Origin: an uncultured Candidatus Peribacteria bacterium
GTDB taxonomy: Bacteria > Patescibacteriota > Gracilibacteria > RBG-16-42-10
Assembly (NCBI GenBank): GCA_964514565.1
Contig: CAZERA010000001.1
Coordinates: forward strand, 186,001 to 250,000
Length of the DNA stretch: 64,000 nt
Reading direction: 5' to 3'
In this document: piece by piece, positions 1 to 24,000 of the stretch
Numbering within the stretch: the stretch's first letter is position 1
Layout of the letters: every line of letters starts with the position of its first letter
Made by a program: the position numbers

Positions 1-3000
1 ATACCATCACAGTCAGGTCCACAGTACCTTCCATACCGACAGACTTGAGAGGAGCTAATACTGATTGAAATTGAGCACCTGTCTTGAGATACTTGTCCAT
101 TGGTAAACCATTGATAGACACATCACCTTTACCTTTTGGAAACAATCGTACTGTAGCAGTAGATGTCTTGCGATATCCGTTTGCGTAGAAGTAATTAGAA
201 GTTTTAGTAGTCATATAGTAGTAAACTAGAAGGTAAGAGTGGTAGGTTGTTGGGCTTCGTATTTGTGGGTAGGACCTACTACTACTTTGAGACGGCTGAT
301 CATATCATTTGCCAATCTGTTCTTAGGAAGCATGCGTTCTACAGCATCACTAATGACACGCTCTGGATTCTTTTTGAGAATGTCTTTCAGAGGTTCTTCA
401 TAAAGATTACCCATGTACTGGCTATGATTGTAGTACATTTTGTCTGTGAGCTTCTTGCCAGTTACTTTGATCTTTTCACAGTTGATTACGATAACGTAAT
501 CGCCATGAGAAGCATGAGGAGTAAACTGAGCTCGATGCTTACCGCGTAGTACCAAAGCAATACGGCTAGCTAGACGTCCCAAGATTTGACCTTCAGCGTC
601 TACTACATGCCAAGTAGCTGTAGTGGTGTGTGATTTGATGACAGATGTCTTTTTCATACTATTAACAAAATTTAAGAAACGAAAGCTACCTCGATTTGAG
701 GAGCAGCATCGCTAACGCGAGGCAAACGATTGTGCAAGCTAACAAAACCTGAATTGCGATCAGTATAACGAGCCTTCAAAGTCTGAAGCATCTTTTTGGT
801 TGCTTCTTCATCAAAGAACACTTCATTGAGCTTACGAGCTGCTGTGACTAGATCATCCTGCTTAGCAATAGTTACAAGCTTCTCAATATAAGGCTTGAGT
901 ACACGTGCTTTTGCAGCTGTTGTGACAATTTTCTCATGGAGTACAAGAGAAGTTGCGAGATTACGAAGCAATGACTTTTTAGCTTTGCTTGGTCTACTGA
1001 GTAGATTTCTTTTTCGATTGTGACGCATAACAATTAATTATTCACTTAAATGTAAATCCATTTTCTGGAGAGCTTTGACCACCTCAGTGATACCCTTTTT
1101 GCCAAAGCCACGGAGATTTGTGAGTTGTTTCTCTGTGTAGGTCAAAAGTTCTTCTACAGAACCAATGCCATTGTTGATCAAAGCGTTTTCAGCTCTTTGA
1201 GAGATCTTTAAAGCTTCAATCGGGGTATACTTCTTCTCATGCTTAGGCTCACTTTTTGCTACTTTCTCGCTACTTTCTTTCTTAGTAGTAGGAACATCAG
1301 CATCAAAGAGAGTCATGTATTGGCGCAAAATACGAGCGCTCATACTTACTACTTCTTGAGGAGAGATAGTACCATCAGTAGCGATCTCCACATCCAAGCG
1401 ATCCAAGTCAGTCATTTGGCCAACACGAGTGTTGGTGACTTCATAACGCACTTTACTGATTGGAGAATACAATGCATCAACTGCAATCATTTCTGCCTCT
1501 AGCTCACGTTTGTCACGGAGATTACTTGGTAAGTAACCAATACCGTTTTCTACTTTAAGTTCCATCTCAATACTATGGCCTTTTTCGAGAGTACAGATTA
1601 CTAAATCTGGATTAACGATTTCTACTTCTGAAGGAGCTTTGATTTGTGCTGCTGTGATCTTACCCTCTTTGTTTGCTTTGAGAGTAAGAGAAGCGCTGCC
1701 ACTTGAAGTTTTTTTGATACGAAGCAATTTGAGATTGAGGATGATATCAATCATACCTTCTTTGACACCAGGGAGAGTAGTAAATTCATGAGTAACCCCT
1801 TTGATTTTCACAGCTGTTACTGCAGCACCAGGAATAGAAGATAAAATAATTCTTCTGAGGGAATTACCAAGTGTCATACCATATCCAGGTGGCAATGGAG
1901 TGATCGTAATTAAACTACGATTGTCTCCGAGAGATTGGTTGGTAACTTTGGTAAGTTCGAAGTTAATCATGTGTAGAGCAGGTAAAGAAATATACTAACG
2001 AGAGTAGAATTCAACTATCTCTTTGATATTCACATTCACTTTAGCCAGATCTTCCTTGCTAGGAGCACTGACGATCTCACCCTTGAGGGCTTTGATATCA
2101 AACTTTAACCATGTAGGTAATTGTACTTTGATACTCTTGCCAGCTTGGATCAATTTCTGAGCTACACTAGCCTTGATAGAAAATTGGTCACCAGGTACAA
2201 GAATACGAGAAGGAGTCTTTACTACGTGGTCGTTTACCAACACGTGACCATGACTAGCCATTTGGCGAGCAAGGTTTGGTGAAGTAACAACACCTGAACG
2301 GAATAATACTGAATCCAAACGCAATTCGAGCATTCCCATCAAATGATCTCCAGTTGAACCCTTGAGTTCAGAGGCATTTGCATAGTAATTCTGTAATTGT
2401 GTTTCGCTTAAACCATAAATTCTCTTGGCTGACTGTTTAGAGCGAAGCTGTTTACCAAAGCTTGAAAGCTTTCGTGAACTATCTTTGCCATGCATACCAG
2501 GAGCAAAAGGACGCACAGTTACTGCACACTTTGGAGACAAACAACGTTCGCCTTTCAAAAACAATTTGTGGCCTTCACGACGACATAGACGACATTTTGG
2601 ACCGGATGAAGTTCTCATGAGATAAGAATAAACTTAAAATGAATTAAACGCGGCGAGGTTTTTTGTTCCTACAGCCATTGTGGGGGACTGGAGTTACATC
2701 ACTGATTGACACTACGGAGATACCGTTTGATTGTAAAGCACGAATTGATTGTTCACGACCACTACCTACCCCACGCACATAGATGCGTGCCTTAGAAAAA
2801 CCAAAGTTCTTGAGTTTAGTAGCAAGGTTTGTTGCAGCTACTGATGAAGCATAAGGAGTTGGTTTGCGTGAACCTTTGAAACCTGAAGCTCCAGAGCTAG
2901 TCCAAGCCAATACATTTCCTTCTAGATCACAAGCTGTAAGCAAGGTGTTGTTGAAGGTAGCACGAATGTGGATTTCACCTTCTGGCACATTGCGTAATAC

Positions 3001-21000: not shown

Positions 21001-24000
21001 AGATACAGTGGTCTTACCGGCATCGATATGCGCGATAATACCGATATTACGTAGCTTCGTGAGGTCAGCCATAACTTGGGAAATAAATAATAAGTAATTG
21101 CAAATCAGAAATGCTTCATGCTCAAAAGAGCCTTAGAAGCGCCGGCATTCTAAAAGAAAAGTGGCCATTACGCAATCCTAAATTAATTAACAATTTAGGA
21201 TTTACGATTAACAGTTTTAAGGGTATGCTCTTTGTTATGGGGCTTTTTTTGATCGGTTTTTTTAGGTTTTGTTTTTCGTTCTCTTTGTAAGTAGTCACCA
21301 ATATCAATGTAATGTCCTACTGTTTTTAATTCTTCGGCCACGAAACCGTGTCTTGAGAGGACGACTACATTTTTACCGTGTTCTTCTAAGTATTTCAGCA
21401 ATGCGTAAAAATCACTGTCTCCAGAAAAAAGTACGAACGTATCATATTGAGACATCAATCTGATTGCATCGAGTACTAATTCCACATCCATATTGCCTTT
21501 GTAAAATCCTTCTTCTTTTACTGGATCATCAGAACGCTTTGTTGTTCCCTTAGCGTTTGGAGCGCTGATAAACTTAAGTGGTTTTTTCTTTACGGTAATG
21601 CCTGCCGAAGTTAGTTCATCAAAATAATCTAATTGTTTCTGATAATCTTCTTGAAAAGCAGAGTAAAAAGAACATTTTGCTTGAGCATCAAAACTACGGA
21701 AGAATTGTAGTACTTTGGAATAATCGATACTGACACGTAAGCGTTTGTTGATAAAGAAAACATTACTGGCATCAATGAAGATGCTAATACGACCAGTGAG
21801 AATGTTTTGGAGCTCGGGGTGGGAAAGCATGGGGGGGGATTGAAAGTTGAGAGTTGAAAATGGAAAGTTGAATCCAGTTTCTGTTTCATAGAGCACTGTA
21901 CACTTTGTACTGGTACTTTGCATATCAGACTAAAACTCTCAACTTCTGAGTAAAAATCTCTGATCTCTGCTCTCGTATCTCTGATTTAAAAAAGCACCCA
22001 ATCTATCATTGATAGTCAGGTGCTTTTTGTTCCTTTGTAGACAAAGGAAGTAGAATTACATGTATTTTGCAAAGTGGGCGAAAGCTTTGTTTGCGTCAGC
22101 CATACGATGGGTATCTTCTTTTTTCTTGATAGCACCACCTTGGTTGTTGCAGGCATCGAGTAATTCAGCTGCTAAGCGTTCAGCCATATTTTGGCCACTA
22201 CGTTCACGTGCTGCACCGATGATCCAACGTAAAGCCAATGTTTGACGGCGATTTGGTTTTACTTCAACTGGGATTTGGTAGTTTGAGCCACCAATACGTT
22301 TAGCTTTTACTTCGATAATTGGAGCTACGTTTTCGAAGGCGAGAGCAAAAGTTTCTTCAGCATTTTTCTTGCTAGCACGAATCTTTTCAAAAGCTTGAGA
22401 AACAATCTCGATAGCAATTGATTTCTTGCCGCGAGTCATGATCATGTTGATCAATTTTTCATTGAGAGTAAGAGAGCGTTTTTTCATACACTATTATTTT
22501 TTAGGTCGTTTGTTGCCATATTTACTGCGGCCCTGGCGGCGAGCATCTACACCTGCAGTATCGAGACTACCACGCACGATGTGATAACGTACACCTGGTA
22601 AGTCTTTTACACGACCACCACGGATCATTACTACTGAGTGCTCTTGGAGATTGTGACCTTCACCTGGAATATATGCTGTCACCTCTAGTCCATTGCTCAA
22701 TTTAACACGGGCAATTTTACGGATAGCTGAGTTTGGCTTCTTTGGAGTCATAGTGGTCACCTTTGTGCATACACCACGTTTCTGAGGAGCTCCACGTTTG
22801 AGACCGACGTCTTTCTTCTTTAATACATTGCGAGCAAATTGGAGTGCTGGTGATTTAGATTTAGCCCATATTTTTTGTCTGGGCTTTCTAATGAGTTGAT
22901 TGATTGTTGGCATAATATTTCTAAGCTGAGGTAAATTAACGAAAGGTATAGATTCAGTCAAGCAAAAGTTACACCATGGCGGTGATTTCTTCTTCGGTAA
23001 GCGTTTCTTGCTCGATTGGTTTGCCAGTAGCTTCGTTTTGGAAGATACGGCCTGCTTTGATCAGACGTCCGATGATTACGTTCTCCTTGAGGCCACGGAG
23101 ATTGTCGATCTTTTTGGTGACAGAGGCTTCCACTAAGACACGGATTGTCTCTTGGAATGAAGCAGCTGAAAGCCAACTCTCTGTAGTAAGTGATGTGCGA
23201 GTAAGACCCAATAGTAAACGTTCAAAGCGAGCTGGTTTTTTGCCTTCTGCTTCCAATGTCTTATTGATATCTTCCATCTTGAGGAAACTAATTGTCTGAC
23301 CAGGTAAGTAGGTGGAATCTCCACTATCGAGAATACGCGCCTTGGAGAACATCTGACGCACGATGATTTCTACGTGCTTATCATTGAGGGTCTGACCTTG
23401 TGATGCGTAGATAGTTTGTACTTCATTGATGATGTACTTCTGTGCAGTCAAGATATCAGTCAAATTGATCAGATCGATCAGGTTCAAATGTCCCTCAGTA
23501 ATAGTAGCACCAGCATTTACTGTACTGCCTGCTGTTACTTTGATTGTCTCGCGAGAAGGAATGTTGTATTCGCGTTTGACCAATTCAGTATGAATGACCA
23601 AAATCTTGTTTCCCTCTAGTTTGATCTTGCCGCGGTTGATCACACGAATTACTTCTTGATTCTTGTGATTTTTAGCGATGATTTCGCGAGGGCCAACAAT
23701 CATGCCATCTTTGACCAGGATTGTATAACCTTCAGCCTCATATTCATCTTGGCCCATCTTATCAGCTGTGACTGTGATTACGTGTTGATTGGTATGTTGT
23801 TCGATACTGACAGTACCGCCAATTTCAGCCAATACTGCTTGAGTCTTTGGTGCACGAGCTTCAAATAATTCTTCAACACGAGGAAGACCTTGTGTAATAT
23901 CTTTGACATCGGCCACACCACCGGAGTGGAATGTCCGCATAGTAAGCTGAGTAGCTGGCTCACCGATACTCTGAGCGGCGATGATACCAACAGCTGCTCC

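Follow-up and report, generated by a model that had tools for sequence, protein, structure and literature searches.

Selection for U or C directly before start codons, and two extended Shine-Dalgarno sequences, in a Candidatus Peribacteria genome

The window analysed, a 64,000-nucleotide stretch of the small genome of an uncultured Candidatus Peribacteria bacterium (contig CAZERA010000001.1, positions 186,001 to 250,000), opens with the str-S10-spc-alpha-rplM/rpsI cluster on the reverse strand (positions 1–22913), which holds 29 ribosomal-protein starts and serves here as an example of a genome-wide feature. Gene names within the cluster are presumptive assignments from the protein sequences, except for uL14 and IF1, which were identified from PF00238 and PF01176, respectively. 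All 29 ribosomal-protein starts have a pyrimidine at −1 (27 U and 2 C) and none has a Shine-Dalgarno (SD) sequence. Another 13 ribosomal-protein starts outside the window, recognised by eye, all carry U at −1, giving 42/42 with a pyrimidine; the first-pass annotation had counted 46 of 46, a complete bias that we also find, though the full set of 46 was not recovered.

Several genes of the cluster, all on the reverse strand, illustrate this context. U precedes the ATG start of rpsL (uS12, 22494–22914) at 22913, the start of rpmJ (bL36, 3503–3620, the 3′ end being taken from a 38-residue translation) at 3619, and the GUG start of rplB (uL2, 14720–15563); tuf and fusA (17680–21073) likewise have U at −1, behind U-rich leaders without an SD. 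C is found at −1 of rpsD (uS4, 1995–2619) and rpsM (uS13, 3085–3469), each with C in seven family genomes, and of rpoA (1038–1971) and secY (7112–8423), each with C in six. The sole purine among the surveyed cluster genes belongs to infA, encoding IF1 (3622–3865 including its −1 base, UCA AUG), which has A at −1 in 8/8 family genomes. The AUU or AUA start of infC is preceded by U in 5/5 genomes resolved (six were examined). At −3, ribosomal-protein cluster starts of the family have U in 140/211 and A in 22/211. Both the infA purine exception and this U preference at −3 are new here. That no position other than −1 stands out, as claimed earlier, holds genome-wide, where −3 carries 0.02 bit and A at −3 is at 0.78-fold, but not in the ribosomal-protein cluster.

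Genes were called across the genome without upstream information, resulting in 948 genes, a first in-frame ATG set of 945 and a subset of 345 with unambiguous starts. At the unambiguous starts, the −1 base is U in 64%, C in 23%, A in 10% and G in 4%, against a local U background of ∼38%, so the bias towards U and pyrimidines first reported for this genome is borne out by calls blind to it. For the first in-frame ATG set, the values are 84% pyrimidine and 63% U, compared with 50% and 31% at internal in-frame ATGs (n = 3828); in upstream DNA, the base preceding any A is U in 33% and a pyrimidine in 49% (n = 4055). Expressed as enrichment, U is at 1.68-fold, C at 1.26-fold, G at 0.38-fold and A at 0.28-fold.

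The −1 base is the most informative single position of the start context, at 0.33 bit, with −2 to −8 contributing ≤0.06 bit each. As a start classifier it reaches an AUC of 0.71 on its own, while base composition and low structure (G-poor, unstructured RNA) reach 0.90; adding −1 to composition and folding gives 0.92, with a U coefficient of +1.8, and U at −1 is thus enriched beyond local composition and folding. Given the modest 0.33 bit, the presence of U in 31% of internal AUGs, and the better classification by composition and structure, the label ‘start signal’ is not supported, and −1 would instead act as a booster. A search for decoy ATGs upstream of true starts found 11, eight with a pyrimidine at −1, and added no information. 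Out-of-frame ATGs upstream of starts are weakly depleted (78 vs 96.6 ± 9.6).

Comparison with the genome G001 shows that the position is conserved. A pyrimidine is present at −1 in 196 of the 220 starts common to both genomes, and identity across these pairs is 0.77 at −1 and 0.51–0.62 at −2 to −12; U is kept as U in 90% of 141 pairs, and a purine as a purine in 54% of 24. The pyrimidine share also climbs from 78% to 95% over codon-bias quartiles (reference genes excluded), and the 60 genes with the highest codon bias have 54 U, 6 C and no purine. These data support selection on the −1 base towards U (or C) that is linked to translation.

SD pairing is at the level of shuffled sequence (of 945 starts, 8 reach ≤ −8.4 kcal/mol, against 7 after shuffling) and the 16S rRNA ends in CACCUCCU with its anti-SD intact, both in agreement with the first-pass annotation, which had overlooked two genes that bear on this retention. 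Matches to the 16S tail extend over 13 nt in rpsU and hup and in no other gene; the runner-up among the 945 reaches 8 nt. Both genes carry the extended SD in 8/8 family genomes. This is a new observation, and no previous mention of hup in this role was found. The rpsU SD has a pairing energy of −15.6 kcal/mol here and ≤ −13.3 kcal/mol in 8/8 family genomes, which places it within the Bacteroidia-type extended rpsU SD (< −13 kcal/mol, 9–13 bp). Despite its SD, rpsU has U at −1 in 6/8 family genomes; hup has U in 16/20 class genomes where it lacks an SD and in 0/8 family genomes where it has one. Judging from these sequences, the perfect 13-bp SDs of rpsU and hup are probably the reason that the anti-SD is retained. 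Of six further class genomes aligned, four have an altered anti-SD, among them G025 and G034, both with an rpsU that lacks an SD; G010, with an intact anti-SD and no SD on rpsU or hup, counts against this explanation. Hsp20 was considered as a third SD gene and rejected (SD in 1/30 loci).

Among the ribosomal proteins relevant to such pairing, bS21 has Tyr53 in 8/8 family genomes, which the ranges of two matches (E 0.13 and 0.044) would put in register with residue 54 of 7jil, the position of Tyr54 in the Bacteroidia-type system; its C-terminal part gave no match when searched against the PDB. For bS18, none of the four Bacteroidia pocket residues Lys/Arg37, Phe50, Asn56 and Gln58 was matched at an offset of 14 or 15, these offsets being taken from the matched range (9–78 to 23–93). 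The genome also encodes a bS1 with four S1 repeats, and its bS6 bears a C-terminal extension.

The fall-off of U outside the family implied by the first-pass annotation is not general. U at −1 reaches ≥0.8 in the ribosomal-protein cluster of 10/72 Patescibacteria genomes (the family counted once) and is common across the phylum rather than private to this lineage. In genomes with both kinds of start, U is present at −1 in 377/598 non-SD and 78/230 SD starts (Mantel-Haenszel OR 2.4, p 1e-5; OR 3.5 stratified by gene), and the contrast persists after removing 202 possible stop/start overlaps (OR 1.9, p 0.008). In this contrast, U had no effect by genome at −2, −4 or −5, and C at −1 was not significant. 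A 16-genome clade (334 starts) has U in 72% and C in 7%, a specificity that U−1:A37 pairing predicts. SD fraction and U share are uncorrelated across the 72 genomes (rho 0.02), correlate outside the class of the studied genome (rho −0.58, n = 39), and are not significantly related in phylogenetically independent pairs. Loss of SD alone does not yield U at −1, since the outgroup loci have no SD/non-SD contrast (OR 1.1) and four SD-poor Bacteroidota loci have U shares of 0.28–0.40, near local U. At Patescibacteria GUG and UUG starts (n = 67), −1 is C in 28 and U in 21.

The initiator tRNA of the genome has A37, as reported earlier, and so does every initiator tRNA found among its relatives, with no natural variant at position 37 seen. 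A37 is therefore not in itself evidence for this lineage, as it is also present in G024 (A at −1 in 14/15) and G015 (C in 15/17), and in G034 (A in 11/15) and G033 (C in 14/22). In E. coli, U at −1 raises translation by 23%, acting through tRNA position 37 (PMC10018350). A 70S P-site structure has A37 stacked between U36 and A38 (PMC2528185), and we saw no structure displaying a fourth U−1:A37 pair. The enrichment of C (1.26-fold, against 0.28-fold for A) is not predicted by Watson-Crick pairing to A37, while the phylum-wide enrichment of U, specifically, before non-SD genes fits it; pairing probably accounts for U over C, and not for the exclusion of purines. The earlier proposal of A37 pairing as the native start signal thus gains from a selected, translation-linked and U-specific enrichment, and loses the idea of a signal that replaces the SD. 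In free E. coli tRNA-fMet, the G29-C41 pair holds A37 in a base triple (PMC2528185); the studied genome has A29-U41 instead. As a driver of U at −1 this stem is not supported: comparing A29 with G29 genomes (26 vs 27) gave an unadjusted p of 0.049 for U enrichment but p 0.78 inside the class, and independent pairs were non-significant. Avoidance of internal UAUG was not specific (OR 0.74 here, 0.82 in outgroup loci and 0.68, non-significant, in 44 kb of E. coli).

The sequences show a −1 bias that is conserved, rises with expression and differs between SD and non-SD starts, as well as two genes with an SD. On this footing, we consider it reasonably probable that initiation is SD-independent with a graded determinant at −1, where U exceeds C through A37 pairing, and that rpsU and hup keep the anti-SD in place. 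The 30S subunit would locate starts mainly via G-poor, unstructured, AU-rich RNA and, once the P site holds AUG, efficiency would be tuned by the base at −1 (U > C >> G, A). The advantage of U over C would most likely reflect pairing of a fourth base to A37 of tRNA-fMet, as demonstrated in E. coli, and purine exclusion an additional, lineage-specific ribosome preference. The cell may exploit this grade, with U before its most highly expressed genes, a conserved C before rpoA, secY, rpsD and rpsM, and a conserved A before infA. The anti-SD would be idle on ordinary mRNA, and the 13-bp SDs of rpsU and hup are probably read by bS21-lacking ribosomes, as in Flavobacterium. A broader reading, which we regard as fairly improbable, makes UAUG, read by tRNA-fMet nucleotides 34–37, a phylum-wide SD substitute; IF1 would enforce the −1 check and curb its own synthesis through its conserved, poor AAUG context, and bS21-free ribosomes would switch on an SD regulon of two genes, linking the state of the ribosome to chromosome compaction by HU, for instance when the cell is without its host.

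It is unlikely, though worth serious weight, that −1 (and −3) is read by the ribosome itself without pairing, as a Kozak-like context drifting between lineages, with the E-site pocket, the 690 loop of 16S h23, uS7/uS11 or IF1/IF3 as candidate readers. The −1 base does differ by lineage (U here, C in G015 and G033, A in G024 and G034) under an invariant A37, purines are excluded while C is tolerated, and U takes the place of the usual A at −3 in the family; G693 of F. johnsoniae stacks on −3 (PMC13000457), and A695U in the 690 loop is family-specific (4/4 family, 0/6 other class genomes). However, A695U belongs to a set of 14 positions specific to the family, in a single lineage, and the commonest, SD-compensating base across the phylum is U and not C, the very base that compensatory mutants in E. 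coli tie to A37. We consider it very unlikely that the bias is a by-product of AT-rich, structure-avoiding leaders. Composition and folding do classify starts well, and G at −1 strengthens folding (mean −2.5 to −3.4 kcal/mol), so the avoidance of G may be structural; yet A is nearly free in folding (−2.63 vs −2.49) and depleted 3.5-fold, which largely refutes this account as regards A, −1 adds signal over composition and folding, and the adjoining positions are not conserved.

Transcription starts follow a Y−1/R+1 rule, and leaderless mRNAs would thereby acquire both U and C at −1. This origin is extremely improbable, as neither TANNNT nor TATAAT peaks where expected in 506 operon-first genes, with no −10 box found ∼7 nt before AUG, a pyrimidine precedes 84% of 95 genes lying 0–19 nt behind a same-strand gene and 85% of 105 divergent genes, and the bias is complete within the S10/spc operon. 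A gene-caller artefact, a worry the first-pass annotation itself raised, could arise from the heuristic start choice in the genome-wide sets. Its likelihood is negligible, and the idea is already refuted: calls for the studied genome ignored upstream sequence, and starts anchored by homology projection show the same or a stronger bias.

Set against known systems, the start context appears to be a variant of established mechanisms. Quadruplet (extended codon-anticodon) U−1:A37 pairing was described in E. coli by Hollerer and Jeschek (2023; PMC10018350), who also cite it for algal chloroplast petA (Esposito et al.). Common to both are U favoured before the start independent of folding and an A37 initiator tRNA; the known evidence comes from synthetic libraries, where the effect is 23%, and from a single chloroplast reporter, whereas here the bias is native, genome-wide, conserved and expression-graded in an SD-less genome, with C tolerated and purines excluded. 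Bacteroidia share SD-less initiation, an intact anti-SD, G-poor unstructured leaders and context bases near AUG, but use Kozak-like adenines at −3, −6, −12 and −13 (Baez 2019, PMC6847099) in contrast with the informative U/C at −1 and the depleted A−3 of the family's ribosomal-protein genes. Flavobacteriales couple an extended rpsU SD to bS21 autoregulation (PMC7797042, PMC9976891, PMC13000453), resembling the 13-bp rpsU SD found here, which lies below −13 kcal/mol although SD pairing elsewhere in the genome does not exceed chance; the equally long SD on hup and the unmatched bS18 signature residues differ. Nakagawa 2017 (PMC5397173) reports C signals just upstream of non-SD starts in Chlorobi, Deinococcus-Thermus, Bacteroidetes and Cyanobacteria, also a pyrimidine adjoining the start, with C in place of U. 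Table 4 of Estrada 2024 (PMC10783764) lists SD-scarce CPR genomes, including Peregrinibacteria and Absconditabacteria, that lost CCUCC, which the present family keeps. The portions of these two papers compared contain no U−1 analysis of Patescibacteria, and nothing relevant came from those of PMC9723584, PMC6851277 and the KozakExplorer preprint.

The finding bears on how start codons are chosen in SD-less bacteria outside Bacteroidia, and offers a natural case in which −1 is the most informative single position; quadruplet pairing has so far been demonstrated in reporters only. The −1 bias follows expression and trades off with the SD over a large phylum, with infA, infC, hup and rpsU as genes for direct tests. 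The finding may also explain why a lineage without SDs keeps its anti-SD, brings in HU as a non-ribosomal candidate for bS21-gated translation, and makes U at −1 a simple prior when starts are annotated or gene expression is designed in CPR bacteria.

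The genome under study (G000; 1.12 Mb in seven contigs) belongs to a class that includes TGA-recoded genomes, which would make it Gracilibacteria, and its two nearest named loci carry the label Candidatus Peribacteria. Its main ribosomal-protein cluster occupies positions 1–22913 of the window (C1:186001–250000) on the minus strand. In G000, 948 genes were called with a dicodon model that left upstream sequence unused; gene names were recognised from protein sequence, except where a Pfam search is cited. The base directly before the start codon (−1) was a pyrimidine in 84% of first in-frame ATGs (n = 945), against 50% of internal in-frame ATGs (n = 3828). 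Among 345 unambiguous starts it was U in 64%, C in 23%, A in 10% and G in 4%, and ratios relative to local composition were 1.68 for U, 1.26 for C, 0.38 for G and 0.28 for A. Ribosomal-protein starts in the window carried a pyrimidine in 29 of 29 cases, with U in 27. Shine-Dalgarno (SD) pairing stood at shuffle level (31 observed and 22 shuffled at −6 kcal/mol, 8 and 7 at −8.4 kcal/mol; n = 945) despite a canonical anti-SD in the 16S tail, and the initiator tRNA carries A37. The −1 bias is real in calls blind to upstream DNA, and the first-pass annotation was right about its completeness in the window's ribosomal-protein genes, the lack of SD sequences beside a kept anti-SD, and A37. Two genes break into the cluster: one that we take to be flavin oxidoreductase-like (5012–6259, plus strand, opposite to the cluster), with A at −1, and a presumably NYN-like gene (21195–21923, minus strand). 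Elsewhere on this contig, tRNA-Ser(GGA) is predicted three times in tandem at a spacing of ∼210 nt (C1:479357–479870).

The claim that the −1 pyrimidine is itself the start signal did not hold, and the bias is a weaker signal than proposed. Its information content is 0.33 bit, and in classifying the 345 starts against 700 sampled internal ATGs, −1 alone gave an AUC of 0.71, compared with 0.875 for upstream composition, 0.90 for composition and folding, and 0.92 for everything combined. No other single position is as informative as −1, which acts in addition to an open leader poor in G.

The bias is selected and tied to translation. Across 220 start pairs from G000 and its congener G001 (410 of 945 genes matched in ∼420 kb of the latter), identity was 0.77 at −1 and 0.51–0.62 at −2 to −12; U was kept as U in 90% of 141 pairs, and a purine as a purine in 54% of 24. 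Pyrimidine at −1 climbs from 78% to 95% across quartiles of codon bias (78 genes each), and purines are absent at −1 from the 60 most biased genes, where U occurs 54 times and C six times. One-base stop/start overlaps, which force −1 to be A or G, number three, against 32 four-base overlaps. Leaderless mRNA is disfavoured as a cause, since there was no −10 box peak upstream of 506 operon-first genes and the bias was equal in genes 0–19 nt after a neighbour and in divergent genes. Predicted folding was −2.63 kcal/mol with A at −1 and −3.44 with G, against −2.49; A is thus nearly folding-neutral, and folding could account for the depletion of G, though not of A.

The bias is also wider than first held. 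Starts were projected by homology in the same ribosomal cluster for 81 Patescibacteria loci and 80 named loci, excluding two of the former with <10 starts and, from the latter, five labelled Patescibacteria, four unclassified and five with <10 starts. In 72 Patescibacteria genomes (the family of G000 and its closest relatives, eight genomes, counted once), the median share of U at −1 was 0.50 against a local U of 0.32, with 10 at ≥0.8; in 66 outgroup loci, a skewed sample of mostly SD-rich Clostridia and Synergistota, the median was 0.19 and none reached 0.8. The family's 211 cluster starts had 173 U, 31 C and 7 A at −1, and U at −3 in 140; SD sequences preceded two of 654 cluster starts in 33 class genomes. 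In another part of the phylum, a clade of 16 genomes had 72% U and 7% C. Within genomes holding both gene kinds, U preceded 377 of 598 non-SD and 78 of 230 SD starts (OR 2.4, p 1e-5; OR 1.9 without 202 possible overlaps); the contrast was weaker at −3 (OR 2.0) and absent for U at −2, −4 and −5. Several results argue that no simple rule applies: over all 72 genomes the U share did not track the SD fraction (rho 0.02), and a correlation emerged solely when genomes of the class were set aside (rho −0.58, n = 39); phylogenetically independent pairs on a FastTree tree were not significant; U at −1 was not marked in four SD-poor Bacteroidota loci; and SD-less relatives strongly prefer A (G024, G034; L024, L034) or C (G015, G033; L015, L033), all four with A37. 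In an SD-poor Phycisphaerales locus (L240) a pyrimidine precedes 14 of 15 starts, which suggests that Patescibacteria may not be alone in showing the pattern. We found no report of U at −1 in Patescibacteria in literature coverage that mostly omits subscription papers; relatives may be listed as SD-scarce in the S2 Table of Estrada.

The retained anti-SD probably has a narrow clientele. A perfect 13-nt match to the 16S tail occurs in two of 945 G000 genes, rpsU (C1:417622, outside the window; L073, PF01165) and hup (C6, outside the window; L099, PF00216), the next best being 8 nt, and only their 7-mer SD cores lie at a called gene's first ATG. The rpsU SD reaches −13 kcal/mol or stronger in all eight family genomes; in 13 other class genomes with a hit, three reach this value, three lie at −9 to −11.5 and seven have none. 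Other classes have it in 14 of 28 scorable loci (from the 29 best hits), including SD-poor G046, G076 and G095, and rpsU of other Patescibacteria frequently begins with GUG or UUG behind an extended SD (L268–L296). Of 30 hup loci, those of all eight family genomes, G008 and G017 carry the SD and the remaining 20 lack it; U precedes 16 of these 20, against none of the eight family genes with SD, while rpsU has U nonetheless in six of eight. Three 16S genes from the family have an intact anti-SD, as do G010 and G024; it is altered in four of six other class genomes aligned (G025, G040, G034, G029; L348, L354, L355, L356) and in G014. G025 and G034 combine an altered anti-SD with an rpsU lacking SD; G010 keeps the anti-SD, and neither its rpsU nor its hup has an SD. 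PMC13000453 describes rpsU translation as a critical anti-SD role in Flavobacterium, and the extended rpsU SD beside a kept anti-SD resembles this. In G000 the bS18 signature residues are unmatched and the tyrosine of bS21 matches weakly, so the arrangement appears to parallel the Flavobacterium system and is not equated with it. In the same literature coverage, no publication was found on bS21 together with Patescibacteria. Among SD-led genes elsewhere, a second Hsp20 gene in G004 (L310/L327), which has a full SD and was not seen in relatives, and an ORF in G005 (L311) are possibly imported; prfB of G000 (C4; L266) keeps its +1 frameshift site behind a weak SD-like stretch.

Graded use of −1 is suggested by infA (3622–3865, minus strand), the sole purine among 25–30 cluster genes scored per genome in seven family genomes, with A in the eighth too (8/8), and by rpsD, rpsM, rpoA and secY, whose C is kept in six to seven. 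This is suggestive rather than decisive, because between two congeners only about half of the purines are retained; nor does infA always have a purine in other genomes whose −1 pyrimidine bias is strong. Its A could possibly reflect IF1 feedback or a short-leader transcript; a literature search found no publication on the infA start context. Both infC and eIF1 are autoregulated via poor start context, and infC starts with AUU or AUA after U in the five genomes resolved of six (L265, L305, L306, L308, L309).

The main rival account, a Kozak-like context read by the ribosome with pairing absent, is rather unlikely. As no more than a lead for it, 16S A695U is found in four of four family genomes and none of six other class genomes (5' part of the G000 gene on C5; L350–L352), in the 690 loop, where the adjoining base stacks on −3 in F. 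johnsoniae (PMC13000457). A695U accompanies loss of A at −3 in the family; C18U/G917A is a further family-specific pair of changes. The initiator tRNA (C3:71347–71422) has A29-U41, with only two G-C pairs; position 29 varies among A, G and U in a scattered fashion over Patescibacteria, as do loops with C33. For E. coli, PMC10018350 demonstrates a fourth pair between U at −1 and A37. We somewhat favour a joint reading in which open, G-poor leaders would recruit the 30S subunit, initiation would be tuned by −1 in the order U, C, purine, the preference for U over C would stem from the A37 pair, purine exclusion would be a lineage-specific feature of the ribosome, and rpsU and hup would hold the anti-SD in place.
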